DNA from: a virus
Taxonomy: Duplodnaviria; Heunggongvirae; Uroviricota; Caudoviricetes
Direction: 5' to 3' (one strand)
Virus record (IMG/VR): IMGVR_UViG_2617270968_000009
Span: 1-13,431 of that record
Length of the DNA stretch: 13,431 nucleotides
Shown: positions 1-13,431 of the stretch, in pieces
Position numbering within the stretch: position 1 is the stretch's first letter
How the letters are laid out: each line of letters begins with the position of its first letter
Notes under the pieces: generated by a model
What the model was told of the DNA's origin: nothing
The model's database searches: none
Seen by the model: the letters and a program-made list of their open reading frames with translations, nothing else
Program-made: the position numbers and the translations under genes

Positions 1-1284
1 TTACTTCTTCGCCTCTGCAACCACTTTACTACCCACGCCGCGGTTATTGTATTCCCACATGCGGTTGTAGTTAGTGTCATTCAGATTGCGCTGTATTTCG
101 TCGTTATCATCTACGCTGCCGGTATTACCCGCAAACGGACGATTAGAGATCACCGCATCGGCCCACGGTTTAGCCGTGTTAAAACCTTCGTTGATGGCGC
201 TATCACGGATCACCACCTGACCGTTGGTATTGGCATCAACATCCAGCGAGCGGCCCAGTTGCGCCACACCATCACCGAAAGCATTGAAACGGCTGTTTAC
301 GGCGAGGAAACCGTAGTAAATGTTGGACAGCGTAGCCGGTGCAAACACATACGCTTCTTGCTGAGTACGTGAGTTCACCACGCGGAATTCGGTGTTATCG
401 AACACCACTGCGCCGCGACCAGAAACGATATCCACATCCCCTTCAATGTAGCTGTTGGTCACCAGCGTACGCGGCTGACGATTTGTTTCCAGACGGTTCT
501 GCACACCGCTGTTGGTGACAAAGAAGGTGTTCTGACGACCGAGAATGTTAACGTTGTTAATCTGTACCTGGTCACCATCAGTACGCAGTGCCACCGCCGG
601 ATGGTTACCTGCATCTACGCTATCGCCCAGCGTGTTTTCGATGGTCAGATTTTGCAGTTGCAGGCCATTGTTTTGTGACCAGAAGACCGCAGAGCAGAGA
701 ACACCGATACTGTCGCTGCGTTTGCTCTGGCAGCTATCGTACATATACCACGCTGGTTTACCTGGCATATATTTGCCGCGCGGGTTGACGTCGTGACGCC
801 AGTCGGCAGGGCTCATGCCACCATCAAGGGAAAGCCCAATCTTCACATCAATCGGTTTTTCACCTGTACCGTACAGAGTAATTCCACCCGGAGCGGCAGG
901 GACATATACCGTTCCCTGATACTCACCAGGCATCACGGCAATATACTGGCGCTTGTTGGTACGCTTGATAATTGCCGCATCTACCGCCGCCTGAATCGTG
1001 GTATGCGTTACACCTTGAGTGCCCGCCGGGCCGACAACAAAGTCAGGTTGCGCAGGCAGGGTAATCGGGGAAGGATTCCACGCTGCAGCACCTGGTGTCA
1101 GGGATGCAAAATAGTGTTGAGCATCGAAATTCTGCGCTTCTTTTGCCGACAGAATCGGGCGAGAAGAGGTACCAGGCGCGGTTTGATCAGAAGGACGTTG
1201 ATCGGGCGGGGTTGAGCTACAGGCGGTCAGCGTCACGCCAAAAGCCAATGCCAGCGCCAGACGGGAAACTGAAAATGTGTTCAC
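1..1284 (-). CDS. ybhC: YbhC-like pectinesterase-family outer-membrane lipoprotein (putative acyl-CoA thioesterase); host gene flanking the lambda attachment site
   Basis: 427-aa ORF with GTG start at 1284 and stop at 1-3; N-terminal signal peptide with lipobox LTAC; protein recognised as E. coli YbhC; lies immediately outside attL. Confidence 0.9.
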   Translation of the reverse strand: MNTFSVSRLALALAFGVTLTACSSTPPDQRPSDQTAPGTSSRPILSAKEAQNFDAQHYFASLTPGAAAWNPSPITLPAQPDFVVGPAGTQGVTHTTIQAAVDAAIIKRTNKRQYIAVMPGEYQGTVYVPAAPGGITLYGTGEKPIDVKIGLSLDGGMSPADWRHDVNPRGKYMPGKPAWYMYDSCQSKRSDSIGVLCSAVFWSQNNGLQLQNLTIENTLGDSVDAGNHPAVALRTDGDQVQINNVNILGRQNTFFVTNSGVQNRLETNRQPRTLVTNSYIEGDVDIVSGRGAVVFDNTEFRVVNSRTQQEAYVFAPATLSNIYYGFLAVNSRFNAFGDGVAQLGRSLDVDANTNGQVVIRDSAINEGFNTAKPWADAVISNRPFAGNTGSVDDNDEIQRNLNDTNYNRMWEYNNRGVGSKVVAEAKK

Positions 1285-1309
1285 AGGTTGCTCCGGGCTA
1301 TGAAATAGA

Positions 1310-1420
1310 AAAATGAATCCGTTGAAGCCTGCTTTTTTATACTAAGTTGGCATTATAAAAAAGCATTGCTTATCAATTTGTTGCAACGAACAGGTCACTA
1401 TCAGTCAAAATAAAATCATT
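1310..1420. other. attL: attL (B-O-P'): lambda core GCTTTTTTATACTAA at 1331-1345 with host B arm on the left and phage P' arm on the right
   Basis: Core sequence seen directly; right flank gttggcattataaaaaagcattgcttatcaatttgttgcaacgaacaggtcactatcagtcaaaataaaatcatt matches the lambda P' arm, with an IHF-like site (tATCAAtttgTTG) and arm-type Int sites (aggtcactat, cagtcaaaat) adjacent to the int 3' end. Confidence 0.9.
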
Positions 1421-2489
1421 ATTTGATTTCAATTTTGTCCCACTCCCTGCCTCTGTCATCACGATACTGTGATGCCATGGTGTCCGACTTATGCCCGAGA
1501 AGATGTTGAGCAAACTTATCGCTTATCTGCTTCTCATAGAGTCTTGCAGACAAACTGCGCAACTCGTGAAAGGTAGGCGGATCCCCTTCGAAGGAAAGAC
1601 CTGATGCTTTTCGTGCGCGCATAAAATACCTTGATACTGTGCCGGATGAAAGCGGTTCGCGACGAGTAGATGCAATTATGGTTTCTCCGCCAAGAATCTC
1701 TTTGCATTTATCAAGTGTTTCCTTCATTGATATTCCGAGAGCATCAACATGCAATGCTGTTGGGATGGCAATTTTTACGCCTGTTTTGCTTTGCTCGACA
1801 TAAAGATATCCATCTACGATATCAGACCACTTCATTTCGCATAAATCACCAACTCGTTGCCCGGTAACAACAGCCAGTTCCATTGCAAGTCTGAGCCAAC
1901 ATGGTGATGATTCTGCTGCTAGATAAATTTTCAGGTATTCGTCAGCCGTAAGTCTTGATCTCCTTACCTCTGATTTTGCTGCGCGAGTGGCAGCGACAGG
2001 GTTTGTTGTTATATGGCCTTCAGCTATTGCCTCTCGGAATGCATCGCTCAGTGTTGATCTGATTAACTTGGCTGACGCCGCCTTGCCCTCGTCTATGTAT
2101 CCATTGAGCATTGCCGCAATTTCTTTTGTGGTGATGTCTTCAAGTGGAGCATCAGGCAGCCCCCTCCTTATTGCTTTAATTTTGCTCATGTAATTTATGA
2201 GTGTCTTCTGCTTGATTCCTCTGCTGGCCAGGATTTTTTCGTAGCGATCAAGCCATGAATGTAACGTAACGGAATTATCACTGTTGATTCTCGCTGTCAG
2301 AGGCTTGTGTTTGTGTCCTGAAAATAACTCAATGTTGGCCTGTATAGCTTCAGTGATTGCGATTCGCCTGTCTCTGCCTAATCCAAACTCTTTACCCGTC
2401 CTTGGGTCCCTGTAGCAGTAATATCCATTGTTTCTTATATAAAGGTTAGGGGGTAAATCCCGGCGCTCATGACTTCGCCTTCTTCCCAT
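1419..2489 (-). CDS. int: Integrase, tyrosine recombinase (lambda Int)
   Basis: 356-aa ORF, ATG at 2489; near-identical to remembered lambda Int (MGRRRSHERRDLPPNLYIRNNGYYCYRDPRTGKEF... C-terminal ...SQYRDDRGREWDKIEIK with catalytic Tyr); directly beside attL. Confidence 0.97.
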   Translation of the reverse strand: MGRRRSHERRDLPPNLYIRNNGYYCYRDPRTGKEFGLGRDRRIAITEAIQANIELFSGHKHKPLTARINSDNSVTLHSWLDRYEKILASRGIKQKTLINYMSKIKAIRRGLPDAPLEDITTKEIAAMLNGYIDEGKAASAKLIRSTLSDAFREAIAEGHITTNPVAATRAAKSEVRRSRLTADEYLKIYLAAESSPCWLRLAMELAVVTGQRVGDLCEMKWSDIVDGYLYVEQSKTGVKIAIPTALHVDALGISMKETLDKCKEILGGETIIASTRREPLSSGTVSRYFMRARKASGLSFEGDPPTFHELRSLSARLYEKQISDKFAQHLLGHKSDTMASQYRDDRGREWDKIEIK

Positions 2490-2685
2490 TTCTGATCCTC
2501 TTCAAAAGGCTACCTGTTACTGGTCGATTTAAGTCAACCTTTACCGCTGATTCGTGGAACAGATACTCTCTTCCATCCTTAACCGGAGGTGGGAATATCC
2601 TGCATTCCCGAACCCATCGACGAACTGTTTCAAGGCTTCTTGGACGTCGCTGGCGTGCGTTCCACTCCTGAAGTGTCAAGTACAT
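2467..2685 (-). CDS. xis: Excisionase (lambda Xis)
   Basis: 72-aa ORF MYLTLQEWNARQRRPRSLETVRRWVRECRIFPPPVKDGREYLFHESAVKVDLNRP..., overlapping the int start by 23 nt as in lambda. Confidence 0.95.
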   Translation of the reverse strand: MYLTLQEWNARQRRPRSLETVRRWVRECRIFPPPVKDGREYLFHESAVKVDLNRPVTGSLLKRIRNGKKAKS

Positions 2686-2712
2686 CGCAAAGTCTCCGCA
2701 ATTACACGCAAG

Positions 2713-2732
2713 AAAAAACCGCCATCAGGCGG
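2713..2732 (-). terminator. Intrinsic terminator-like hairpin (ccgccatcaggcgg on the plus strand, followed on the minus strand by a T6 run)
   Basis: GC stem 2719-2732 with U-tract 2713-2718 when read on the minus strand; overlaps the stop of the orf55-like ORF, upstream of xis. Confidence 0.5.
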
Positions 2733-2892
2733 CTTGGTGTTCTTTCAGTTCTTCAATTCGAATATTGGTTACGTCTGCATGCGCTATCTGCGCCCATATC
2801 ATCCAGTGGTTATAGCAGTCGTTGATGTCCTCCGCTTCGATAACCCTGTTGAATGGCTCTCCATTCCATTCACCTGTGACTCGGAAGTGCAT
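2725..2892 (-). CDS. Small hypothetical protein (55 aa) in the xis-ea8.5 interval, lambda orf55-like
   Basis: Hand translation from ATG at 2892: MHFRVTGEWNGEPFNRVIEAEDINDCYNHWMIWAQIAHADVTNIRIEELKEHQAA*; absent from the ORF track because it is under 60 aa; same position as the small ORF annotated between xis and ea8.5 in lambda. Confidence 0.5.
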   Translation of the reverse strand: MHFRVTGEWNGEPFNRVIEAEDINDCYNHWMIWAQIAHADVTNIRIEELKEHQAA

Positions 2893-2980
2893 TTATCATC
2901 TCCAAAAAACAAAACCCGCCGTAGCGAGTTCAGATAAAATAAATCCCCGCGAGTGCGAGGATTGTTATGTAATATTGGGT

Positions 2981-3262
2981 TTAATCATCTATATGTTTTG
3001 TACAGAGAGGGCAAGTATCGTTTCCACCGTACTCGTGATAATAATTTTGCACGGTATCAGTCATTTCTCGCACATTGCAGAATGGGGATTTGTCTTCATT
3101 AGACTTATAAACCTTCATGGAATATTTGTATGCCGACTCTATATCTATACCTTCATCTACATAAACACCTTCGTGATGTCTGCATGGAGACAAGACACCG
3201 GATCTGCACAACATTGATAACGCCCAATCTTTTTGCTCAGACTCTAACTCATTGATACTCAT
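2981..3262 (-). CDS. ea8.5: Ea8.5 protein (lambda early-left accessory gene, function unknown)
   Basis: 93-aa ORF, ATG at 3262, Cys/His-rich; length and position match lambda ea8.5. Confidence 0.85.
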   Translation of the reverse strand: MSINELESEQKDWALSMLCRSGVLSPCRHHEGVYVDEGIDIESAYKYSMKVYKSNEDKSPFCNVREMTDTVQNYYHEYGGNDTCPLCTKHIDD

Positions 3263-3464
3263 TTATAAACTCCTTGCAATGTATGTCGTTTCAGCTAAAC
3301 GGTATCAGCAATGTTTATGTAAAGAAACAGTAAGATAATACTCAACCCGATGTTTGAGTACGGTCATCATCTGACACTACAGACTCTGGCATCGCTGTGA
3401 AGACGACGCGAAATTCAGCATTTTCACAAGCGTTATCTTTTACAAACCCGTATTCCTGCTCATA

Positions 3465-4016
3465 TCACTCTCCTTTGATGCGAATGCCTGTTGCAATGCT
3501 GTTTATGATGCTGTCAGTGCATGGGGTAGAAAGCTGGGCATCTCCAGCAATTCTCATGACCTCAACATCTGCATATCGAATACCGAGGTGTATCAGACCG
3601 GCTATACCTGACTTAAGCCGAGCATTTTCCATAAACAGATCCTTTGCCCGCTGTTTTTCTGCCTCAAGCTCAACGCGCAACTTCCCTACCGTTAACGCAA
3701 TCTCCTCGTTCTCCTGGTCGCGGCGTTTGATGTATTGCTGGTTTCTTTCCAGCTCATCCAGCAGCGCCAAGACGGTAGCGGGATTGGCTGCGGCGATGAA
3801 TTCAGCATTGGCCTGCTGTTCCATTTGGAAATCTTCATCGAAACCGCTTTCTGGATGCGCTCCTTCAATTCTGCAAATAGGAATATATCCAGCAACTTCA
3901 CGATGAATTAGCGCATCATCACCATCAAATCGGCTCTCTCCATATTCGAGCGACCACTCACCACACGTTGCTTTTTCTGCCTTGGCCCGCAGTGCCTGAG
4001 AGTTAATTTCGCTCAC
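3465..4016 (-). CDS. ea22: Ea22-like protein (coiled-coil rich early-left accessory protein)
   Basis: 183-aa ORF with GTG start at 4016 (MSEINSQALRAKAEK...); position after ea8.5 and length (lambda Ea22 is 182 aa) match. Confidence 0.8.
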   Translation of the reverse strand: MSEINSQALRAKAEKATCGEWSLEYGESRFDGDDALIHREVAGYIPICRIEGAHPESGFDEDFQMEQQANAEFIAAANPATVLALLDELERNQQYIKRRDQENEEIALTVGKLRVELEAEKQRAKDLFMENARLKSGIAGLIHLGIRYADVEVMRIAGDAQLSTPCTDSIINSIATGIRIKGE

Positions 4017-4234
4017 TTCGAACCTCTCTGTTTACTGATAAGCTCCAGATCTTCCTGGCAACTTGCACAAGTCCGACAACCCTGAACGGCCAGGCGTCTT
4101 CGCTCATCTATGGGATCGCCACACTCACAACAATGAGTGGCAGATATAGCCTGGTGGTTCAGGCGGCGCATTTTTATTGCTGTATTGCGCTGTAATTCTT
4201 CGATTTCTGATGCTGAATCAATGATGTCTGCCAT
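4013..4234 (-). CDS. TraR/DksA-family C4 zinc-finger protein (lambda Orf73-like)
   Basis: 73-aa ORF with two CxxC pairs (CCECGDPIDERRRLAVQGCRTCASCQ) typical of the TraR/DksA C4 zinc finger; 4-nt overlap with the ea22 start. Confidence 0.75.
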   Translation of the reverse strand: MADIIDSASEIEELQRNTAIKMRRLNHQAISATHCCECGDPIDERRRLAVQGCRTCASCQEDLELISKQRGSK

Positions 4235-4283
4235 CTTTCATTAATCCCTGAATTGTTGGTTAATACGCTTGAGGGTGAATGCG

Positions 4284-4310
4284 AATAATAAAAAAGGAGC
4301 CTGTAGCTCC
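4284..4310 (-). terminator. Intrinsic terminator-like hairpin between the orf61-position ORF and the TraR-like ORF
   Basis: Plus strand ggagc-ctgta-gctcc (4296-4310) preceded by aataataaaaaa, so the minus strand reads hairpin then TTTTTTATTATT. Confidence 0.5.
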
Positions 4311-4332
4311 ATGATGATTTTGTTTTTCATGC

Positions 4333-4614
4333 TCACCGTTCCTTAAAGACGCCGTTTAACATGCCGATCGCCAGGCTTAAATGAGTCGGTGTGAATCCCA
4401 TCAGCGTTACCGTTTCGTGGTGCTTCTTCAGTACGCTACGGCAAATGTCATCGACGTTTTTATCCGGAAACTGCTGTCTGGCTTTTTTGATTTCAGAATT
4501 AGCCTGACGGGCAATGCTGCGAAGGGCGTTTTCCTGCTGAGGTGTCACTGAACAAGCCCCATGTCGGCAAGCATAAGCACACAGAATATGAAGCCCGCTG
4601 CCAGAAAAATGCAT
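4333..4614 (-). CDS. Hypothetical protein at the lambda orf61 position (start uncertain)
   Basis: 93-aa ORF from ATG at 4614. An in-frame ATG at 4644 overlaps the orf63 3' end by 20 nt (the lambda orf61/orf63 arrangement) but is followed by an in-frame TGA at 4615-4617. An internal GTG overlapping the stop of a 27-aa alternate-frame ORF is another possible start. Confidence 0.45.
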   Translation of the reverse strand: MHFSGSGLHILCAYACRHGACSVTPQQENALRSIARQANSEIKKARQQFPDKNVDDICRSVLKKHHETVTLMGFTPTHLSLAIGMLNGVFKER

Positions 4615-4624
4615 TCAGTGGTTG

Positions 4625-4816
4625 TCATACCTGGTCTCTCTCATCTGCTTCTGCTTTCGCCACCATCATTTCCAGCTTTTGTGAAAGGGATGCGGCTAAC
4701 GTATGAAATACTTCGTCTGTTTCTACTGGTATTGGCACAAACCTGACTCCAATTTGAGCGAGGCTATGTGCCATCTCGATACTCGTTCTTAACTCAACGG
4801 GAGATGCTTTGTGCAT
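4625..4816 (-). CDS. Orf63-like small protein (lambda early-left region)
   Basis: 63-aa ORF, ATG at 4816 preceded by GGGGAG Shine-Dalgarno on the minus strand; length and position match lambda orf63. Confidence 0.7.
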   Translation of the reverse strand: MHKASPVELRTSIEMAHSLAQIGVRFVPIPVETDEVFHTLAASLSQKLEMMVAKAEADERDQV

Positions 4817-4985
4817 ACAGCTCCCCGTTTATTATTTATCTCCTCAGCCAGCCGCTGTGCTTTCAGGGGATTTCGGATAACAGAAAGGCCGGGAAATACC
4901 CAGCCTCGCTTTGTAACGGAGTAGACGAAAGTGATCGCGCCTAACAGGCGCAACAGTAACCAGCATAAATCAGGCTGCGGCCAAA

Positions 4986-5162
4986 ATGGCGCGGACAGGA
5001 ATCTTAGTTATTGATGGTAAGGTCTGGCGAACGGTGTATTACCGGTTCGCTACCAGGGAAGAACGGGAAGGAAAGGTGAGCACGAATCTGATTTTCAAGG
5101 AGTGTCGCCAGAGTGCCGCGATGAAGCGGGTGTTGGCATTTTATCGCGGCAATTTTCAATAG
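4986..5162 (+). CDS. Possible small ORF (58 aa), function unknown
   Basis: Hand translation MARTGILVIDGKVWRTVYYRFATREEREGKVSTNLIFKECRQSAAMKRVLAFYRGNFQ*; no convincing Shine-Dalgarno; lies at the boundary between the lambda-like arm and the AT-rich insert. Confidence 0.3.
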   Translation: MARTGILVIDGKVWRTVYYRFATREEREGKVSTNLIFKECRQSAAMKRVLAFYRGNFQ

Positions 5163-5198
5163 ACTATGTACATAAAAATATCATTTTTTAATACATGT

Positions 5199-5390
5199 CT
5201 AATTATTGGACGAAATTGGTTTTTGCTTTGGTTTAGTTAGCCTAGCAATCAAGCCAGAGGCAATAATGATGATCCAAGCAATTTGATGCAATGCTACTCC
5301 AATATAAGAACCTTTATAGATAATAAAGGCATAGATCGCTAGAAACGAAATAAATATCCATAACGAAAGTTGATAAATTTTGGCGCGCAT
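5199..5390 (-). CDS. Small hydrophobic (predicted two-helix membrane) protein, about 63 aa
   Basis: Track ORF 5199-5405 begins at a TTG; the first ATG is at 5390 (MRAKIYQLSLWIFISFLAIYAFIIYKGSYIGVALHQIAWIIIIASGLIARLTKPKQKPISSNN). Two hydrophobic stretches, basic C-terminus, AT-rich codon usage, weak Shine-Dalgarno. Confidence 0.45.
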   Translation of the reverse strand: MRAKIYQLSLWIFISFLAIYAFIIYKGSYIGVALHQIAWIIIIASGLIARLTKPKQKPISSNN

Positions 5391-5646
5391 ATTTAATCCA
5401 ATCAATCAGAAAGACGAGTAATCATAGAGGTACTATCACCCGGGTAACTATTGCTATTATGAACGGATAGGATAGAGGCTTCAATAACATATGCATCAAG
5501 TATGATGGAATATGTAGATGAAAATGACTTGTGTCAAATTTGTGGAAATGAGTACCATGTTTCTCTGAAATTGATGTCGTTAATGGCTAGTGATAGTGAA
5601 CTTTTTTACTTTATAATTCCTTTGGTTATAACAATAAGGTAAATTT

Positions 5647-6207
5647 ATGAAGAAGATAATATTATTAGCCATGATTATTGGTTCTTTAACAGGTTGCGCT
5701 AGTGTGCCACCATTGAATTTTTCAACACCTAACGTGGGAGTTAGCCAGAAAAAAATAGATGCTGAAATTAAGTCATTAACGGTATCACTTGCTCGTCCAG
5801 ATGAGCAGAAAGGGGATATCACTGCTGGTATGGAGGCTATAACTCCAATTTGGCGTGAATCTTTGCAGGAAGCACTCGACCGAATGACTATTTTTCGTGA
5901 TAGTTCACCAAATACGGTTAGCTTAAATGTTAAAGTGTTGGCTCTTGACGTTCCTGCTTTTGGTGTTTCAATGACAACTAAAGCAATTGCAAGGTATGAA
6001 ATAATCAACCGTGCGAATGGTGATATTATATATACGCAGGATATTGAGTCTACCGGTACTGTTCCAGCCAGTTACGCATTCTACGGTATTGTTCGAGCAC
6101 GCGAATCTGTTAATCGCGCGGTGCAAAACAACATAACGCAGTTCTTGCAAGCATTAGAAAGTGTTGATCTTTCTCGTCCAATGTTTCCTGTTAGGGTAGC
6201 TAAATGA
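5647..6207 (+). CDS. Lipoprotein of unknown function (186 aa, signal peptide plus lipobox LTGC)
   Basis: ATG at 5647 with AAGG Shine-Dalgarno 7 nt upstream; N-terminus MKKIILLAMIIGSLTGC is a typical lipoprotein signal; residue after Cys is Ala (no inner-membrane retention Asp); stop overlaps the next start (ATGA at 6204-6207). Confidence 0.8.
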   Translation: MKKIILLAMIIGSLTGCASVPPLNFSTPNVGVSQKKIDAEIKSLTVSLARPDEQKGDITAGMEAITPIWRESLQEALDRMTIFRDSSPNTVSLNVKVLALDVPAFGVSMTTKAIARYEIINRANGDIIYTQDIESTGTVPASYAFYGIVRARESVNRAVQNNITQFLQALESVDLSRPMFPVRVAK

Positions 6208-6656
6208 AGCGATTATTCGTAATTGCTCCACTCTTAGTGTTGGTTGGATGCGCACAAAATATATCGCCAAATAGTTATTCTGTTGGCTCTGTGGGCATGG
6301 TTAATCGAACTATCGCTGGTACAGTTATTAGTGCCAGGGGGGTTGATATCAGTGGGACTTCCGCGTTAGGCGGGACTGCTGGGGCTGCCGTGGGGGCAAC
6401 CGCTGGTTCTGCGCTTGGTGGGGGAGTTCGTTCTAATATCGTTGGTGCCGTTGGTGGTGCGGTCATTGGTGGTATTGCCGGGGCAGCAATCGAATCTTCA
6501 GCAACAAAACAAACAGGCATGGAATATGTTGTCGAAACTGAGAATGGGAATTTAATGACCATTGTTCAAGGCAAAGATCCGTTATTTACTCAAGGAAGTA
6601 AGGTCCTTGTTTTATACGGAAACCCTTCTCGCATAATAACAGACCCGCGTCACTAA
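6204..6656 (+). CDS. Glycine-zipper outer-membrane lipoprotein, SlyB/Pcp-like (150 aa)
   Basis: Lipoprotein signal MKRLFVIAPLLVLVGC; central Gly/Ala-rich glycine-zipper segment (GGTAGAAVGATAGSALGGGV...GAVGGAVIGGIAGAAI) followed by a C-terminal beta-rich tail, the architecture of SlyB/Pcp-family lipoproteins; translationally coupled to the upstream lipoprotein. Confidence 0.8.
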   Translation: MKRLFVIAPLLVLVGCAQNISPNSYSVGSVGMVNRTIAGTVISARGVDISGTSALGGTAGAAVGATAGSALGGGVRSNIVGAVGGAVIGGIAGAAIESSATKQTGMEYVVETENGNLMTIVQGKDPLFTQGSKVLVLYGNPSRIITDPRH

Positions 6657-6748
6657 CATACCTTTTGATTTTGTAAAATCAATTCGTAATAATAAAGTCA
6701 TCGGAGCTTGAACAACTCCGGTGACTTCTGCGCTAAACGGGGACGTTT

Positions 6749-6850
6749 ATGCGCACATACAATCCAAACTCTCTTCTCCCTTCACAGATGCAGAAATGCA
6801 CCTGCGATTTTTTGTATCCTGAGTTTGACCTCTGCGGAGGTGAAGCGTGA
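6749..6850 (+). CDS. Small Cys-containing ORF (33 aa) translationally coupled to ninB/ybcN (possibly ylcH-like)
   Basis: Hand translation [33 protein letters not shown]; stop TGA 6848-6850 overlaps the GTG start of the next gene (GTGA); position matches the small gene upstream of ybcN in DLP12, but the sequence is not confirmed from memory. Confidence 0.45.
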
Positions 6851-7302
6851 ACCTCCCACAAGACGGCATCAAATTACATCGCGGCAACTTCACCGCTATC
6901 GGCCAGCAGATCCAGCCTTATCTGGAGGACGGAAAATGCTTTCGCATGGTGCTTAAACCGTGGCGCGAGAGACGCAGTCTTTCCCAGAATGCACTCAGCC
7001 ACATGTGGTACAGCGAAATCAGTGAATACCTCATCAGCAGGGGTAAAACGTTCGCCACTCCAGCTTGGGTAAAAGATGCTCTCAAACACACATATCTCGG
7101 TTATGAAACCAAAGACCTGGTTGATGTCGTAACCGGTGATATCACCACTATCCAGTCGTTACGCCATACCTCCGATCTTGATACCGGAGAGATGTATGTC
7201 TTCCTGTGTAATGTTGAAGCCTGGGCGATGAATATTGGCTGCCACCTGACTATTCCGCCGAGCTGCGAGTTCCAGCTGCTGCGCGATAAGCAGGAGGCGT
7301 AA
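6847..7302 (+). CDS. ybcN: NinB-family recombination protein (DLP12 YbcN-like, DNA base-flipping protein)
   Basis: 151-aa ORF with GTG start and GGAGGTG Shine-Dalgarno; sequence recognised as E. coli YbcN/NinB-like ([13 protein letters not shown] motif region). Confidence 0.85.
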
Positions 7303-7472
7303 TGGCTACACCGCTTATTCGTGTCATGAACGGGCACATTTACAGAGTACCAAATCGTCGTAAGCGTAAACCTGAGCTGAAGCCTTCCGAAATACCAACA
7401 CTGCTCGGATATACCGCCAGCCTGGTTGATAAAAAATGGTTGCGACTGGCAGCAAGGAGGAATCATGGCTGA
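7302..7472 (+). CDS. ninE: NinE-like small protein (56 aa)
   Basis: Hand translation [56 protein letters not shown]; start overlaps the ybcN stop (TAATG); conserved nin-region position. Confidence 0.7.
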   Translation: MATPLIRVMNGHIYRVPNRRKRKPELKPSEIPTLLGYTASLVDKKWLRLAARRNHG

Positions 7473-7755
7473 TTTGAGAAAAGCAGCGCGTGGTCGGGAA
7501 TGCCAGGTAAGAATCCCTGGCGTATGTAATGGCAACCCTGAAACGTCTGTACTGGCACATATCCGGCTGGCTGGATTGTGCGGCACCGGTATTAAACCGC
7601 CAGACCTTATTGCCACCATTGCCTGTTCTGCCTGTCACGCCGAAATCGACCGCCGCACGCATTTTGTCGATGCTGAGCACGCAAAAGAATGCGCGCTGGA
7701 AGGTATGGCGAGAACGCAGGTTATCTGGCTGAAAGAGGGGGTAATCAAGGCGTGA
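7465..7755 (+). CDS. ybcO: YbcO-like nin-region protein (Cys/His-rich, putative nuclease, 96 aa)
   Basis: ATG at 7465 with AGGAGG Shine-Dalgarno 5 nt upstream ([37 protein letters not shown]...); the track's longer 109-aa version starts upstream inside ninE. Confidence 0.85.
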
Positions 7756-8114
7756 ATACTTACCACATCACACTACCCTGGCCTCCGAGCAATAATCGCT
7801 ATTACCGCCATAATCGCGGGCGCACGCACATCAGCGCAGAGGGGCAGGCATACCGCGATAACGTCGCCCGAATCATTAAAAACGCAATGCTGGATATCGG
7901 CCTGGCTATGCCTGTGAAAATCCGCATTGAGTGCCACATGCCGGATCGCCGTCGCCGTGACCTGGATAATCTGCAAAAAGCCGCTTTTGACGCACTCACT
8001 AAAGCAGGTTTCTGGCTGGATGATGCTCAGGTCGTTGATTACCGCGTTGTGAAGATGCCTGTTACCAAAGGTGGGAGGCTGGAACTGACCATCACCGAAA
8101 TGGGGAATGAATGA
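7752..8114 (+). CDS. rusA: RusA Holliday-junction resolvase (120 aa)
   Basis: GTG start overlapping the ybcO stop (GTGA); protein [119 protein letters not shown] recognised as RusA. Confidence 0.9.
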
Positions 8115-8251
8115 TGTTTGAGTTTAATATGGCAGAACTTCTTCGCCACCGCTGGGGGCGTCTGCGCTTATATCGTTTCCCCGGTTCTGTTTTGACCGAT
8201 TACCGAATACTGAAGAATTACGCCAAAACCCTGACAGGAGCAGGAGTATGA
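8111..8251 (+). CDS. ylcG: YlcG-like small protein (46 aa)
   Basis: Hand translation [46 protein letters not shown]; start overlaps the rusA stop (ATGA); same position as ylcG in DLP12. Confidence 0.65.
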
Positions 8252-8336
8252 AGTCAGAGATAACAATCAACTAATACTGTTTTGTTGATTTTTGCTTGTA
8301 ATTGGCGTTCTGGTCTGATTTTTGTGGAGTAAGTTG

Positions 8337-8720
8337 ATGCGTGATATTCAGATGGTTCTTGAGCGTTGGGGATCGTGGGCGGCTAATAATCATGAAGATG
8401 TGACCTGGTCGTCCATTGCCGCCGGTTTTAAGGGATTAATTACTTCAAAAGTAAAATCTCGCCCGCAATGTTGTGACGATGACGCGATGATCATTTGCGG
8501 GTGCATGGCCCGTCTGAAAAAGAACAACAGCGATTTGCACGATTTATTAGTAGATTATTATGTAGTCGGTATGACATTCATGTCACTGGCAGGTAAGCAT
8601 TGCTGCTCTGATGGTTATATCGGGAAAAGGTTACAGAAGGCTGAGGGTATAATTGAAGGGATGTTAATGGCATTAGATATCCGGTTAGAGATGGATATCG
8701 TTGTTAATAACTCTAATTAA
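8337..8720 (+). CDS. quuD: Late-gene antiterminator Q (DLP12 QuuD-type, 127 aa)
   Basis: ATG at 8337 with GGAG 7 nt upstream; protein [26 protein letters not shown]... with Cys-rich segment ([17 protein letters not shown]); position immediately upstream of the lysis region. Confidence 0.8.
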
Positions 8721-8747
8721 TATGCCAGTTGTTTACTAAAAGTTATT

Positions 8748-8771
8748 AAAAATGGGGCGTTGAGACGCCCC
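8748..8771 (-). terminator. Intrinsic terminator for the minus-strand nmpC transcript
   Basis: Plus strand aaaaat-ggggcgt-tgag-acgcccc; on the minus strand this is a 7-bp GC stem followed by ATTTTT. Confidence 0.5.
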
Positions 8772-8859
8772 CAAAAATAAAGGGTAATATATAACAGAAG
8801 GTTTATATAGTTAGAAGCAAGGTTGTGCTTCTAAAGGAAGTGGCTTGAGGGAGCCACTT

Positions 8860-8900
8860 ATATGTTGGGGAGGCAACGCCTCCCGCAACATATCTTTTTC
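8860..8900 (+). terminator. Strong intrinsic terminator on the plus strand, downstream of Q (possible tR' or operon-end terminator)
   Basis: 15-bp interrupted stem atatgttg-gggaggc / gcctccc-(g)-caacatat (8860-8893) followed by CTTTTTC; ends 10 nt before the nmpC stop codon. Confidence 0.55.
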
Positions 8901-8909
8901 GTAATCAGA

Positions 8910-10007
8910 TTAGAACTGGTAAACCAGACCTACAGCAACGATGTCATCAGTGCTTACACCGAGTGCTTTAGTGAAGTCATTTTTGTCAAGCAGGTTGATT
9001 TTGTAATCAACGAAAGTAGACATATTTTTGTTGAAGTAATAGGTTGCACCTACATCAACATATTTGACTAAGTCCTGATCGCCCCATACTCCAAGATCCT
9101 TACCTTTAGATTGCAGGTAAGCAACGGACGGACGCAGACCGAAATCGAACTGATATTGTGCAACAGCTTCGAAGTTTTGAGCTTTATTAGCAACGAAGTG
9201 ATCAGCAAATACAGTCATATTCTGGGTTTCAGAATAGGTAGTGGCCAGGTAAATGTTGTTAGCGTCATATTTCAGACCTGCGGCCCAAACTTCTGCATTT
9301 TTACCGGAAGCAAATACTTCAGGAAGAACTTTCCCTGCATTAACTTGAGTGTCGGTACGATCAGATTTCGCATAAGTTGCACCGATACCGAATCCTTCGT
9401 ATTCATAGGTAGCAGAGAAACCGAAGCCATCACCGTTACCTTCAGTGTAGTTATCGAAATCGCTACGATCGTTTTTGCCTTGGTACTGAGCAGCAAAGTT
9501 CAGACCATCAACCAGACCAAAGAAGTCGTTGTTACGATAGGTTGCAACACCAGTGGTGCGACCAGTCATGAACACATCTGTTTGGGTCCAGGTATCGCCA
9601 CCGAATTCTGGCAGAACGTCAGTCCACGCACCGATGTCGTATGCTACACCGTAGTTACGGCCGTAATCGATGGAGCCGTAGTCACCGAATTTCAGGCCAG
9701 CGAAGGCAAGACGGGTTTTATCTTTGGAGGAACCTTGAGATTCAGCGCGGTTGCCTTTGAATTCATATTCCCACTGACCGAAACCAGTCAGTTGATCGTT
9801 GATTTGGGTTTCACCTTTGAAGCCAAGACGGGCATAAGTAGTATCACCATCATCTGCATCATTAGAGGAGAAGTAGTGCTTAGCATTAACTTTCCCGTAC
9901 AGATCCAGCTTGTTACTGTCTTTATTATAAATTTCAGCTGCCTGAGCAGACATCGCCATCAGTACTGATGCAGCTACAGCAGAAATTGCCACTGTTAATT
10001 TTTTCAT
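8910..10007 (-). CDS. nmpC: Outer-membrane general porin NmpC/OmpD-type (intact, 365 aa)
   Basis: Signal peptide [23 protein letters not shown] then AEIYNKD..., aromatic/Gly-rich beta-barrel repeats, C-terminal ...VGLVYQF; AAGGG Shine-Dalgarno upstream; uninterrupted (no IS element). Confidence 0.92.
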
Positions 10008-10376
10008 CGTGAGCCCTTTTTTTTGAACTATTATTAAAAAATGATGTCACTGCGCGATAAATATTCATCTAATCAATGTGATTATTTCAAGATGTAAGTT
10101 TTGGTTTCTCGTTTGATTTGTGAAGTAGATCTCTATTTTTATCTGAACTTTTTTCTATCGAATCCTATTCATAGCTCTTGGCTGAATAAAAATAAATCTA
10201 TTAGCCAATTTATATTAACGGCTGTTATTTATAAGCGCTCTATAATTTGAAGGTTCAATTTAAATCAGCTAAAATAACACTGGAAATTATTTGTTGGTTA
10301 TTTGTTGAGATTTGCTTATGTATTTGTAGTGGTGTTTTCAATACTCGGTAGCATTCTCGCAAATATCATTTAGTGG

Positions 10377-10405
10377 TTTACGTACGTAAAAAATTGGTTA
10401 TGCTG
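10377..10405 (+). promoter_or_regulatory. Candidate sigma70 promoter (TTTACG, 16-nt spacer, TATGCT), possible late promoter pR'
   Basis: Hexamers each match consensus at 4 of 6 positions; located about 30 nt upstream of a strong terminator and about 180 nt upstream of the holin gene, the geometry expected for pR'-tR'. Confidence 0.25.
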
Positions 10406-10434
10406 TTAAGAGTGGTTACTTCGTCACACAGCTT

Positions 10435-10467
10435 AAACCCGCCGTCGAGCGGGTTTTTCCATTTTTT
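10435..10467 (+). terminator. Intrinsic terminator upstream of the lysis cassette (candidate tR')
   Basis: Stem aaacccgc / gcgggttt with loop cgtcga (10435-10456) followed by TTTTTCCATTTTTT. Confidence 0.55.
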
Positions 10468-10579
10468 GAGTCTCGATATTAGCTGATAACCCAATACCTG
10501 AGTTATTCACTGACTCCGAGTCTGTTACGTTTCGTAGTATTCCCTCAATTTACACCCGCTTTGTCTGCGAGGTGGGGTT

Positions 10580-10795
10580 ATGAAATCCATGGATAAGTTA
10601 ACAACGGGTGTCGCCTATGGCACCTCAGCAGGTAGTGCCGGGTACTGGTTTTTACAGCTGCTAGATAAAGTCACGCCCTCACAGTGGGCGGCAATTGGAG
10701 TGCTGGGTAGCCTGGTATTTGGCCTGCTGACGTACCTGACAAACCTTTATTTCAAGATTAAAGAAGATAAGCGTAAGGCTGCGAGAGGTGAATAA
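10580..10795 (+). CDS. essD: Class II holin / pinholin, S21-type, with dual-start motif MKSM (71/68 aa)
   Basis: 71-aa [74 protein letters not shown]; two transmembrane segments; Met1-Lys2-Ser3-Met4 dual start; immediately upstream of the endolysin gene. Confidence 0.9.
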
Positions 10796-11292
10796 TGTCG
10801 CCATCATTACGCAAGGCTGTAGCAGCTGCTATTGGTGGTGGGGCTGTTGCCATAGCGTCTGTGCTCATCACTGGTCCGAGTGGTGACGATGGTCTGGAAG
10901 GTGTCAGCTACATACCATATAAAGATATCGTTGGCGTATGGACTGTATGTCACGGGCATACAGGAAAAGACATCATTCCCGGTAAAACGTATACCGAAGC
11001 AGAATGCAAAGCCCTCCTGAATAAAGACCTTGCCACTGTCGCCAGACAAATTAACCCGTACATCAAAGTCGATATACCGGAAACAACGCGCGGCGCTCTT
11101 TACTCGTTCGTCTACAACGTGGGTGCTGGCAATTTCAGAATATCGACGCTTCTTCGCAAAATAAACCAGGGTGATATCAAAGGCGCATGTGATCAGCTAC
11201 GTCGCTGGACATATGCTGGCGGTAAGCAATGGAAAGGTCTCATGACTCGTCGTGAGATTGAGCGTGAAATCTGTTTGTGGGGTAAGCAATGA
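10795..11292 (+). CDS. rrrD: SAR endolysin (signal-anchor-release lysozyme, R21-type, 165 aa)
   Basis: N-terminal weakly hydrophobic Gly/Ala-rich SAR segment ([20 protein letters not shown]) followed by a lysozyme domain; start overlaps the holin stop; recognised as DLP12 RrrD / phage 21 R-like. Confidence 0.9.
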
Positions 11293-11750
11293 ACAGAGTA
11301 ACCGCGATTATCTCCGCTCTGGTTATCTGCATCATCGTCTGCCTGTCATGGGCTGTTAATCATTACCGTGATAACGCCATTACCTACAAAGCCCAGCGCG
11401 ACAAAAATGCCAGAGAACTGAAGCTGGCGAACGCGGCAATTACTGACATGCAGATGCGCCAGCGTGATGTTGCTGCACTGGATGAAAAATACACGAAGGA
11501 GTTAGCTAATGCGAAAGCTGAAAATGATGCTCTGCGTGATGATGTTGCCGCTGGTCGTCGTCGGTTGCACATCAAAGCAGTCTGTCAGTCAGTGCGTGAA
11601 GCCACCACCGCCTCCGGCGTGGATAATGCAGCCTCCCCCCGACTGGCAGACACCGCTGAACGGGATTATTTCACCCTCAGAGAGAGGCTGATCACTATGC
11701 AAAAACAACTGGAAGGAACCCAGAAGTATATTAATGAGCAGTGCAGATAG
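11289..11750 (+). CDS. Rz: Rz inner-membrane spanin (i-spanin, 153 aa)
   Basis: [60 protein letters not shown]... near-identical to remembered lambda Rz; ATGA overlap with the endolysin stop. Confidence 0.92.
11509..11691 (+). CDS. Rz1: Rz1 outer-membrane lipoprotein spanin (o-spanin), embedded in the +1 frame of Rz
   Basis: 60-aa [27 protein letters not shown]... with lipobox VVGC and proline-rich mature region ([15 protein letters not shown]), wholly inside Rz. Confidence 0.88.
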
Positions 11751-11753
11751 AGC

Positions 11754-11771
11754 TGCCCATATCGATGGGCA
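11754..11771. terminator. Hairpin between convergent Rz and bor (tgcccat-atcg-atgggca), no U-tract on either strand
   Basis: 7-bp stem with 4-nt loop directly after the Rz stop; position fits a bidirectional transcript-end or stability element. Confidence 0.35.
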
Positions 11772-11781
11772 ACTCATGCAA

Positions 11782-12075
11782 TTATTGTGAGCAATACACA
11801 CGCGCTTCCAGCGGAGTATAAATGCCTAAAGTAATAAAACCGAGCAATCCATTTACGAATGTTTGCTGGGTTTCTGTTTTAACAACATTTTCTGCGCCGC
11901 CACAAATTTTGGCTGCATCAACAGTTTTCTCCTGTCCAATTCCCGAAACGAAGAAATGATGGGTGATGGTTTCCTTTGGTGTTACTGCTGTAGGTTTGTT
12001 TCCAACAGTAAACGTCTGTTGAGCACATCCTGTAATAAGCATTGCCAGAGCGGCAGAAAACAACATTTTTTTCAT
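11782..12075 (-). CDS. bor: Bor lipoprotein (serum-resistance moron, 97 aa)
   Basis: True start is the ATG at 12075 (MKKMLFSAALAMLITGC lipobox) with AGGA Shine-Dalgarno; the track ORF extends upstream to 12123; recognised as lambda Bor. Confidence 0.92.
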   Translation of the reverse strand: MKKMLFSAALAMLITGCAQQTFTVGNKPTAVTPKETITHHFFVSGIGQEKTVDAAKICGGAENVVKTETQQTFVNGLLGFITLGIYTPLEARVYCSQ

Positions 12076-12275
12076 CTTATTATCCTGCATTGTTAAAAAC
12101 GGCAGAATCCTATGTGACAACAATTAAACGATAGTTAAATGGATTGATGAAAATTAAAACTATATAGGTGTACGCTCAGACTATTGGAGGAAGTTGGGGA
12201 CACTCAGAATCCTGTGGAATGAAATAAACCGGTCTATCCGTCTATTACCCTTTTAGCTGCGCTGTATCGTCGCCG

Positions 12276-12340
12276 TATTCCCGCATTAACCATGACCGTA
12301 GCCCGACGGGGAATTCCTTCTGCGTGAGTGTGCGGGAATA
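12276..12340. repeat. Perfect 10-bp inverted repeat tattcccgca (12276-12285) / tgcgggaata (12331-12340) with 45-bp spacer
   Basis: Read directly from the sequence; lies in the non-coding interval between bor and the RHH-like gene; spacer contains ggggaattcc. Confidence 0.6.
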
Positions 12341-12437
12341 ATCAAAAACGATGCACACCGGGTTTTACTGTGCTGACAGACGCAGGGTTACCCTCATAGT
12401 CGCTTTTCCGGTGCGATGGTGGAAGAAACCGGGATGT

Positions 12438-12632
12438 TCATCCATCATCACTTTGGATTGATGTATATGCTCTCTTTTCTGACGTTAGTCTCCGACGGCA
12501 GGCTTCAATGACCCAGGCTGAGAAATTCCCGGACCCTTTTTGCTCAAGAGCGATGTTAATTTGTTCAATCATTTGGTTAGGAAAGCGGATGTTGCGGGTT
12601 GTTGTTCTGCGGGTTCTGTTCTTCGTTGACAT
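12438..12632 (-). CDS. ylcI: Small ribbon-helix-helix-like protein (64 aa; DLP12 YlcI / lambda right-end ORF homolog)
   Basis: ATG at 12632; MSTKNRTRRTTTRNIRFPNQMIEQINIALEQKGSGNFSAWVIEACRRRL... shows basic N-tail, short beta strand, then two helices (Arc/MetJ-like RHH pattern); last gene before cos. Confidence 0.7.
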   Translation of the reverse strand: MSTKNRTRRTTTRNIRFPNQMIEQINIALEQKGSGNFSAWVIEACRRRLTSEKRAYTSIQSDDG

Positions 12633-12779
12633 GAGGTTGCCCCGTATTCAGTGTCGCTGATTTGTATTGTCTGAAGTTGTTTTTACGTTAAGTTGATGCA
12701 GATCAATTAATACGATACCTGCGTCATAATTGATTATTTGACGTGGTTTGATGGCCTCCACGCACGTTGTGATATGTAG

Positions 12780-13020
12780 ATGATAATCATTATCACTTTA
12801 CGGGTCCTTTCCGGTGATCCGACAGGTTACGGGGCGGCGACCTCGCGGGTTTTCGCTATTTATGAAAATTTTCCGGTTTAAGGTGTTTCCGTTCTTCTTC
12901 GTCGTAACTTAATGTTTTTATTTAAAATACCCCCTGAAAAGAAAGGAAACGACAGGTGCTGAAAGCGGGCTTTTTGGCCTTTGTCGTTTCCTTTCTCTGT
13001 TTTTGTCCGTGGAATGAACA
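12780..13020. other. cos: cos site: cosQ / cosN / cosB; 12-nt cohesive-end sequence GGGCGGCGACCT at 12832-12843
   Basis: Sequence ...cgggtcctttccggtgatccgacaggttacg | gggcggcgacctcgcgggttttcgctatttatgaaaattttccggtttaagg... matches the lambda right-end/left-end junction; Nu1 begins 177 nt downstream. Confidence 0.93.
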
Positions 13021-13431
13021 ATGGAAGTCAACAAAAAGCAGCTGGCTGACATTTTCGGTGCGAGTATCCGTACCATTCAGAACTGGCAGGAACAGGGAAT
13101 GCCCGTTCTGCGAGGCGGTGGCAAGGGTAATGAGGTGCTTTATGATTCTGCCGCCGTCATAAAATGGTATGCCGAAAGGGATGCTGAAATTGAGAACGAA
13201 AAGCTGCGCCGGGAAGTTGAAGAACTGCGGCAGGCCAGCGAGACAGATCTCCAGCCAGGGACTATTGAGTACGAACGCCATCGACTTACGCGTGCGCAGG
13301 CCGACGCACAGGAGCTGAAAAATGCCAGAGACTCCGCTGAAGTGGTGGAAACCGCATTCTGTACTTTCGTGCTGTCGCGGATCGCAGGTGAAATTGCCAG
13401 TATTCTCGACGGGATCCCCCTGTCGGTGCAG
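13021..13431 (+). CDS. nu1: Terminase small subunit Nu1 (N-terminal 137 aa; truncated by window end)
   Basis: MEVNKKQLADIFGASIRTIQNWQEQGMPVLRGGGKGNEVLYDSAAVIKWYAERDAEIENEKLRREVEELRQ... near-identical to remembered lambda Nu1; no stop codon before the window end. Confidence 0.95.
   Translation, partial: MEVNKKQLADIFGASIRTIQNWQEQGMPVLRGGGKGNEVLYDSAAVIKWYAERDAEIENEKLRREVEELRQASETDLQPGTIEYERHRLTRAQADAQELKNARDSAEVVETAFCTFVLSRIAGEIASILDGIPLSVQ

Follow-up and report, generated by a model that had tools for sequence, protein, structure and literature searches.

Among the closest described systems are DLP12, a prophage of Escherichia coli K-12, and phage lambda. The closest relatives that keep the early region are the TUM1887 prophage and the viable phage PhiR30_1 (PV340558). 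We analysed a stretch of 13,431 bp, positions 1 to 13,431 of the IMG/VR virus record IMGVR_UViG_2617270968_000009; the whole stretch is called the window in the following. The complete genomes of five E. coli strains (BS74R-D and the IAL72xx series from Brazil) match it over the full length with 99.9% identity. The element, a cryptic lambdoid prophage of 20 kb (lambda: 48.5 kb), occupies the lambda attachment site, with ybhC on one side and ybhB on the other, and the window comprises its left two thirds, preceded by the E. coli chromosome (ybhC). The subject of this work is the deletion that removed its early region and the left endpoint of this deletion, called site S below.

DLP12 shares the nin-Q-porin-lysis-bor-ylcI-cos-nohD backbone with the element (95.8–97.4% identity). 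It has likewise lost the red, immunity and replication genes, with the stumps exoD', peaD' and renD' left behind. An AraC-family gene near the right end is also common to both, and the points at which the terminase large subunit is truncated are no more than 6 nt apart. The differences are the location of DLP12 at argU, with another integrase and a defective xis, and the extent of the early deletion (exo to P in DLP12, orf60a to ren here). Moreover, the ren-ninB slot of DLP12 holds emrE-ybcK-ybcL-ybcM and the insertion sequence (IS) IS3, where two lipoprotein genes are found here, and its porin gene nmpC is broken by IS5 but intact in our element.

The attachment site and its core are the same as in lambda. 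At the protein level, Int, Xis and ea8.5 are 98.6–100% identical to lambda, orf63 and the remnant of orf60a (orf60a') 94–96%, and Rz/Rz1, bor and Nu1 92–99%; the cos ends are identical. In contrast to lambda, the element has no counterpart of lambda positions 31324–40352 (~9.0 kb), its nin, Q, holin and endolysin genes are of the DLP12 type, and a porin gene is located between Q and the lysis genes.

TUM1887 and PhiR30_1 share with the element the flanks, the lipoprotein pair located between ren and ybcN, and the genes from nin to lysis. They differ in that they keep exo, bet, gam, kil, an S24-type repressor, a cro-like gene, ydaT, O, P and a full-length ren. TUM1887 additionally has other late-region deletions of its own.

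Both att boundaries were present at this known phage attachment site. The attR core was found 19.9 kb downstream of attL, adjoining ybhB (33266–33280 of L001, an annotated copy of the locus), with one mismatch and an intact 7-bp overlap. The gene order was lambdoid, with collinear matches to lambda, DLP12, TUM1887 and PhiR30_1 (blastn and annotation), and functions for lytic growth were lost, with gene remnants left. The gene content is a subset of that of a lambdoid phage; no primase, replicase, own regulator or capsid-redirecting family, such as a phage satellite or phage-inducible chromosomal island would have, was found among the open reading frames (ORFs) of the window. The element thus is one of the DLP12-like cryptic prophages, which are a known kind, and it is already present in RefSeq, annotated with pseudogenes. 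By itself it is ordinary: it cannot replicate, repress or package, its value lies mainly in annotation, and the host is likely to be affected by its lipoprotein, porin and bor/iss genes only.

The deletion between orf60a and ren

Alignment to lambda with blastn gave three blocks. Window positions 1331–3488 correspond to lambda 27724–29870 (att, int, xis and ea8.5), positions 3988–4943 to lambda 30367–31323 (start of ea22, orf61, orf63 and orf60a) and positions 4936–5137 to lambda 40348–40548 (ren). The gap, whose endpoints the original prediction had left to such an alignment, is flanked by lambda 31323 and 40348. Compared with the TUM1887 prophage, the gap was 6,087 bp (L002, 7944–14030) between collinear flanks of 98.9 and 96.2% identity. 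In TUM1887, this stretch comprises exo, bet, gam, a kil-like gene, the S24-type repressor gene, the cro-like gene, ydaT, O, P and the 5' end of ren (24 codons).

At the joint, the sequence is GCGCC-TA-ACAGG, the parental sequences being GCGCC-TA-CCCGG in orf60a and GCGG-TA-ACAGG in ren. It links codon 10 of orf60a to codon 25 of ren, and the TA common to both parents is site S (lambda 31322–31323). On the two sides of the joint, tblastn matched residues 10–60 of the lambda orf60a product, and residues 25–92 of lambda Ren and 25–97 of TUM1887 Ren. Among 5,426 complete E. coli genomes, five contained the junction with 100% identity, and it is therefore real and not an assembly artefact. A terminator-like hairpin lies inside orf60a', 36 nt left of the junction; presumably it is the tL3 region.

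The missing modules were searched for with 33 lambda proteins and 11 TUM1887 proteins as tblastn queries against the window and against the whole 37.4-kb locus that holds the complete element. No match was found in either for exo, bet, gam, kil, cIII, ea10, ral or sieB, nor for N, rexAB, cI, cro, cII, O or P. All ORFs in positions 4817–6846 were scanned with Pfam, NCBIfam, PHROGs and PADLOC, and no repressor, antiterminator, replication or defence family was detected; NCBIfam and PADLOC alone gave no match for these ORFs at all. The ORFs of this interval are orf60a' (DUF1317), the remnant of ren (ren'), a 68-aa hydrophobic ORF, two lipoprotein genes and a 33-aa ylcH-like ORF. None matched a DNA-binding family, as a repressor-type immunity module (helix-turn-helix (HTH) or S24-type) would.

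The absence of immunity, recombination and replication modules, which had been predicted, was confirmed by these scans. No relocated module was found anywhere in the complete element, and the family scans gave no candidate for a non-homologous immunity system in the small ORFs. The idea of a cryptic, deleted prophage that retains attL, int/xis, Q, lysis genes and cos also held, as all of these were found intact with the early genes gone. Downstream, the attR core was recovered, together with truncated or missing head genes and missing tail genes. The Q and lysis genes are present and intact as stated, but their type is that of DLP12 and phage 21 (quuD, essD and rrrD) and not lambda Q/S/R. Two further points had to be corrected. 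First, orf63 is not followed directly by cargo: orf60a' and ren' lie between them and define the junction. Second, the supposed cargo insert is not an insertion tied to the deletion. Both the TUM1887 prophage and the viable phage PhiR30_1 (99.5% identity) have the lipoprotein pair in the slot from ren to ninB/ybcN, and PhiR30_1 has its own cI, cro, a gene in the cII position, O and P beside it. Because intact relatives carry the pair in the same slot, it is unrelated to the deletion.

The same comparisons decide whether the element ever had the modules. It could have been a satellite or island built from int/xis and late parts, or one with non-homologous immunity or replication genes in its small ORFs, and its compactness would fit such an origin; nothing more does. 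Against it are the orf60a' and ren' fragments at the joint and the sibling prophage with a complete early region at the same chromosomal site and with the same right-end scars. Furthermore, the lipoproteins of the interval also occur in phages with their own cI/cro/O/P, and no HTH, primase, replicase or defence matches were found in the interval. These comparisons refute this explanation.

The element has undergone one illegitimate deletion, with a crossover between the TA in codon 10 of orf60a and the TA in codon 25 of ren. This event took out the genes for Red recombination, kil, the region for immunity and, along with ori, the genes for replication, and the remaining element is unable to repress, antiterminate, replicate or recombine. 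As pL, N, cII, pR and ori were lost with the deletion, the regulatory consequences that had been predicted follow from established lambda biology: int/xis lack pL, N and cII, nin-Q-lysis lack pR, and there is no repressor and hence no immunity. Expression would be expected only from genes with their own promoters, i.e. the lipoprotein pair, the porin gene and bor/iss. No evidence counted against the deletion itself. Taken as a whole, a cryptic prophage at the lambda attachment site with one TA-to-TA deletion, as an instance of a recurrent event, is very probably the right explanation, the mechanism of that event being deduced.

Recurrence of site S and the sequence signature of the crossovers

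The left endpoint was the same to the nucleotide across at least 14 different right partners, ren of this element included. The others were ydaT, P (two sites), O (two sites), ybcN (two sites), ybcO, a site upstream of ylcH, a tail-fibre gene, rrrD and two unassigned nin-region sequences. Complete E. coli genomes were searched with 200 bp spanning the joint. This gave five exact matches and, in addition, genomes in which the orf60a half abutted P, O, ydaT, ybcN or a lysozyme gene. When four such genomes were compared, the orf60a homology ended after the same base (...GTGATCGCGCCTA) and was followed by a different sequence in each. Further junction types came from pattern scans of IMG/VR and metagenome contigs and from a plasmid search. 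The S junctions are located at window positions 4942–4943, L008 (2073), L009–L012 (2601), L013–L017, L019–L021 and L033–L038. Two loci were excluded from the count: L018 (IMG/VR) is an unrelated 20-nt chance match, and in L028 the break lies 5 nt further right.

A mirror scan (any sequence followed by TACCCGGATATT...) yielded two junction types that keep the exo side, i.e. leftward deletions. These are the xisD'-exoD' joint of DLP12 in K-12, which uses the same TA as the present element, and a joint of intD to exo. Counting both directions, S was the endpoint of at least 16 independent deletions. Of the 5,426 complete E. coli genomes, at least 3,186 carried S unbroken. No junctions came up when breaks lying 2 or 3 nt to the right of S (after TACC or TACCC) were sought, and a scan of the GTDB representative genomes found no S junctions.

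The prophages with S junctions were integrated at the lambda attachment site, at argU or at one other integrase site; further S junctions lay on plasmids of the IncA type. The host prophages had integrases of the lambda type, the DLP12 type and a third type, and their left arms carried different alleles (GAGTGG vs GAGTAG; GATTGCGCC, GATCGCACC). This bears on whether the endpoints are shared by chance or by common ancestry, with S not being special. Many of these prophages are indeed related and recombining. However, S is joined to a different sequence each time, which means that none of the junctions can be derived from another by homologous recombination, and the alleles, integrases and att sites differ. 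With a chance of ~5e-17 for endpoints that all fall on TA (see below), we regard this explanation as hardly credible.

On the Citrobacter freundii plasmid pA18-1 (L038, 5047), an IncA plasmid, orf60a' was joined at S to the rrrD lysozyme gene. The same orf60a'-rrrD joint recurred in ~14 further plasmids, from E. coli, Klebsiella and Enterobacter. The remnant on these large, resistance-type plasmids is lambdoid or Rac-like, with TraR, orf61, orf63, orf60a', Rz, trkG, tail-fibre assembly and invertase genes.

The signature of the crossovers was computed on 13 partners with known unrearranged sequence. TA was found at the crossover in 13 of 13 partners; the probability given above refers to 13 random endpoints. 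Two bases before the TA, G was found in 12 of 13 partners (P=8.6e-6 given TA). The base directly before the TA was G and the base directly after it was A in about two-thirds of the partners each. The partner consensus was therefore G-(G)-T-A-(A), with no other conservation within 20 nt, and homology past the TA was no more frequent than predicted by chance. The 2-bp TA was shared in all 15 informative junctions. Neither S nor the partners showed dyad symmetry, and the conserved bases were one-sided. Every S junction was an exact single-TA joint with no bases gained or lost.

Joints elsewhere in these prophages were also inspected. Crossing at TA with G-N-T-A parents was seen in the late-region joints of TUM1887 (L007; lambda 8955/9260 and 9653/15272), in the exoD-peaD (L008, 2378; lambda 31627/39972) and aaaD-tfaD joints of DLP12, and in the joint of E to the tail-fibre sequence of the present element. 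Two other joints used ordinary microhomology of 4–6 bp, e.g. ATGCG (lambda 5298/8514, TUM1887). The boundaries of the cargo slot were inspected for the same TA signature, and nothing clear was found there.

Deletions with one fixed and one variable endpoint are made by site-specific enzymes, such as the Int-promoted deletions at lambda att and the deletions anchored at origin nicks in M13 or pC194. The S deletions resemble these in having one precise, reused endpoint and many partners that share a short motif. They differ in that S is no att site, no known origin and no known nick site, and the crossover comprises only 2 bp. A published description of a breakpoint at this site was not found in the searchable literature and, as far as could be determined, a recurrent nucleotide-precise breakpoint here was previously undescribed. 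Prophage decay is usually described as random mutation followed by selection. The reuse of a single base pair in at least 16 deletions, together with a strand-specific motif, indicates a defined biochemical activity behind much of the lambdoid prophage decay in E. coli. The recurrence points to an undescribed site-specific way of disabling prophages, and it is directly testable, as it concerns one conserved 15-bp site.

Candidate activities at site S

GajA, the nuclease of the Gabija system, cuts both strands of lambda DNA at one place only, AATAACCCGGATATT near position 2354 (PMC8136825). For nicking (CC/NGG, the slash marking the nick), either AATAACCCGG or CCCGGATATT is sufficient, and the degenerate nicking motif is TNNNS/RGGNNA (PMC8136825). 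Site S resembles this site. It abuts CCCGGATATT, which is half of the cut site and occurs exactly twice in lambda: at the GajA cut site at 2354 and at 31324–31333, directly right of S. The minimal recognition sequence, CCNGG with an AT-rich wing (CCCGGATATT / AATAACCNGG), is thus present at S in the form of CCCGGATATT. It lies on the deleted side of the junction and is intact at L002 7944–7953, while the window keeps only the left flank of S.

The partners fit the nicking motif TNNNS/RGGNNA, with NN being TA. Their mean score was 3.9 of 6 on the top strand, compared with 2.1 for 724 TA sites in the region, and none of 200,000 resamples scored as high (P<5e-6). Conditioned on the G, the score was 3.0 vs 1.9 (P~1e-4). 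On the bottom strand, the partners scored 1.8, which equals the background, so the enrichment was confined to one strand. S itself scored 5/6 on the bottom strand, and the xisD partner of DLP12 scored 6/6.

Phages that antagonise RecBCD are the ones on which P2 Old and Gabija act, and lambda evades Old through loss of exo-bet-gam (PMC12407980). As these are the genes removed by deletions starting at S, nucleases of the OLD family fit biologically. In the mechanism that we consider most likely, a sequence-preferring nuclease of the OLD/Gabija-GajA type would cut S and a partner of the form S-R-G-G-T-A-A, and the ends would then join at the self-complementary TA. Cells rid in this way of gam and of lethal early genes would survive. 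Our tentative reading is that S would be a conserved breakage site of lambdoid prophages where exo and orf60a adjoin, that a host or defence nuclease of the OLD/Gabija type may cut it, and that joining to GGTAA-like partners may repeatedly delete red-gam, immunity and replication genes, and sometimes lysis genes; we put this at somewhat less than an even chance. If it is true, defence systems would shape resident prophage genomes besides blocking incoming phage. Anti-phage nucleases would then be a direct, site-specific cause of the grounding and domestication of prophages, with DLP12 of K-12 as one product. Gabija differs from such a role in being described as blocking phage growth and not as producing prophage deletions.

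Several observations weigh against a nuclease of this type. The specificity of GajA was taken from the Bacillus cereus enzyme. The break does not coincide with the predicted nick: at S, the crossover is shifted to the left of the top-strand nick by 2 nt, and in the partners it is shifted to the right of the nick by 3 nt. Trimming, fill-in or another cut geometry must therefore be assumed, and the junctions fall strictly at TA despite this offset. Moreover, S is one of 13 lambda sites that match the half-site in at least 8 of 9 positions, and the significance of the match is inflated by hindsight because S was compared with the sites of many enzymes before this match was found. No processing would be needed for either junction class if, hypothetically, the cut were staggered by 2 nt around the TA.

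The exactness of the joints suits a conservative site-specific recombinase. In this case, S would be a crossover site with a 2-bp TA overlap (the geometry of serine recombinases), no nuclease or end joining would be involved, and a prophage invertase or the large serine recombinase YbcK would act on S together with pseudo-sites that match it loosely. Such a conservative crossover at TA accounts for both junction classes without end processing, for joints that neither lose nor gain bases, for homology that stops at the TA and for deletions in both directions from S. Genes for serine recombinases are present in such prophages (ybcK in DLP12 and an invertase beside the tail-fibre genes in L038). 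However, the TA at S is not surrounded by dyad symmetry, S bears no known resemblance to the crossover sites of invertases, and the lineage of the present element has no ybcK. Inversion products were absent among the 14 junction types, and enzymes of this kind would seldom have a partner specificity as loose as three to five bases to one side of the TA. We therefore grade a recombinase as a serious but unlikely candidate. The invertase sites in L038 were inspected and were uninformative.

DNA structure or replication was considered as well, i.e. a stall or a hairpin nuclease acting at the quasi-palindrome (CGGAGTAGACG...CGCGCCTACCCG), followed by joining at microhomology. An imperfect inverted repeat does pair GTAG with CTAC around S, with S in the 3' arm, and the strong hairpin is only 36 nt away. 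The top strand was, however, no more stably folded than shuffled sequences (z=−0.14 and 0.05), and the bottom strand was only marginally more stable. Microhomology would favour CTA or CCTA partners, while the observed partners have G-(G) before the TA, and a strand-specific partner motif is not expected from a stall at S. This makes a structural cause improbable.

A number of other activities were tried and rejected. Adjacent deletion by an IS was discounted, as no IS was found at any junction. Lambda or DLP12 integrase at secondary att sites does not fit an overlap of just 2 bp, three integrases and the lack of a core-like sequence at S. Subunit exchange by gyrase (4-nt stagger) predicts GTAA or CTAC joints, while CTAA was observed, and resolution by RusA/RuvC would yield inversion-type joints. 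For slippage at a long single-stranded stem-loop, the intervals of 4–35 kb are too long. Resemblances to XerCD/dif, relaxase nic sites, IS608, IS621/REP and the origins of phiX, M13 and geminiviruses were considered, and none is known to fit the position of the break.

The surroundings of S (window 4931–4950, TGATCGCGCCTACCC) resemble the right inverted repeat of IS3, TGATCCTACCC (TGATC...CTACCC; L008, 3986–4035), from which they differ by a 4-nt insertion. Mimicry of an IS3 end was rejected, as it needs this 4-nt gap and as the break lies 11–13 nt from the transposase cut position. IS3-family elements are located a few hundred bases away in several related prophages.

Other features of the prophage

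Table 1. Features of the 13,431-bp window (positions in window coordinates; aa, amino acids)
Feature	Position	Strand	Basis
ybhC, chromosomal, gal side of the lambda attachment site	1–1284	−	RefSeq annotation of identical locus
attL core GCTTTTTTATACTAA	1331–1345	+	Exact match to lambda attP core 27724–27738
int, intact, 356 aa	1419–2489	−	99.2% identity to lambda Int, full length
xis, intact, 72 aa	2467–2685	−	98.6% identity to lambda Xis
exo-xis region: small ORF, ea8.5, ea22-like pseudogene, TraR/DksA-family gene, orf61-like, orf63	2725–4816	−	Annotation, profiles, tblastn
orf63 (DUF1382)	4625–4816	−	Profile match
orf60a' (DUF1317), without first 9 native codons, start codon and ribosome-binding site	4789–4956	−	Pfam PF07026, profile positions 10–59/60
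Terminator-like hairpin inside orf60a'	4885–4907	−	Sequence same as lambda
ren' fragment, without ~24 N-terminal codons	4941–5162	+	tblastn; phrog_142
Deletion junction, TA of site S	4942–4943		Sequence comparison
AT-rich spacer, GC content 0.34–0.38	5163–5646		Base composition
68-aa hydrophobic ORF in spacer after ren'	5199–5405	−	ORF; no family match; 'hypothetical' in PhiR30_1
Promoter-like site before lipoprotein gene 1	5590–5617	+	Consensus match only
Lipoprotein gene 1, 186 aa, signal peptide and lipobox LTGC, phrog_12521	5647–6207	+	Sequence and PHROGs
Lipoprotein gene 2, 150 aa, lipobox LVGC, glycine-zipper region, phrog_13877	6204–6656	+	Sequence and PHROGs
nin region, DLP12 type: ylcH-like, ybcN, ninE, ybcO, rusA, ylcG	6749–8251	+	97.4% identity to DLP12
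ybcN (ninB position)	6847–7302	+	Annotation
quuD, Q-type antiterminator, intact	8337–8720	+	Annotation
Porin gene (nmpC/ompD type), intact, 365 aa, between quuD and essD	8910–10007	−	ORF and annotation
Lysis cassette: essD, rrrD, rzpD with embedded Rz1 (11509–11691), intact	10580–11750	+	Annotation, tblastn
bor/iss lipoprotein gene	11782–12075	−	Annotation, tblastn
cos junction; GGGCGGCGACCT from 12832	12831–12832		Identical to lambda ends
nohD (Nu1-type small terminase), runs past window end	13021–13431	+	98.9% identity to lambda Nu1

The two lipoprotein genes overlap. Their products begin with the signal peptide and lipobox sequences MKKIILLAMIIGSLTGC (lipoprotein 1) and MKRLFVIAPLLVLVGC (lipoprotein 2); the glycine-zipper match of lipoprotein 2 was weak, and both PHROGs are of unknown function. 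The pair is an ordinary moron of the ren-ninB slot, with low GC content and a putative promoter of its own. The products are candidates for surface modification or superinfection exclusion. No convincing terminator was found after lipoprotein gene 2, and read-through from the promoter-like site into ybcN-quuD may be possible.

No tRNA genes were found in the window. The ea22-like pseudogene (3597–4016) lacks its C-terminal part both here and in TUM1887, and this lesion is therefore older than the early-region deletion. Between bor and ylcI, the ybcV-ybcW segment (~1.3 kb in TUM1887 and DLP12) is swapped for ~290 bp (window 12130–12420). Only ~110 bp of these (12255–12365) match TUM1887 and DLP12, at 82–83%, which makes this a separate small rearrangement.

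Beyond the window, the terminase large subunit is cut after ~104 codons, the portal and tail genes are missing, and only truncated forms of the protease and major capsid genes are left, with tail-fibre remnants fused to them. The right end is closed by IS remnants and an AraC-family gene. Because these late genes are truncated or missing, no particle formation is possible despite cos and nohD. The terminase large-subunit gene is cut at L001 25854 (lambda 1024) and joined to the protease gene through GGTT. Its DLP12 counterpart is cut at L008 17662 (lambda 1018), with aaaD joined to tfaD through TAT. This part of the terminase large-subunit gene may be a second preferred breakage region.

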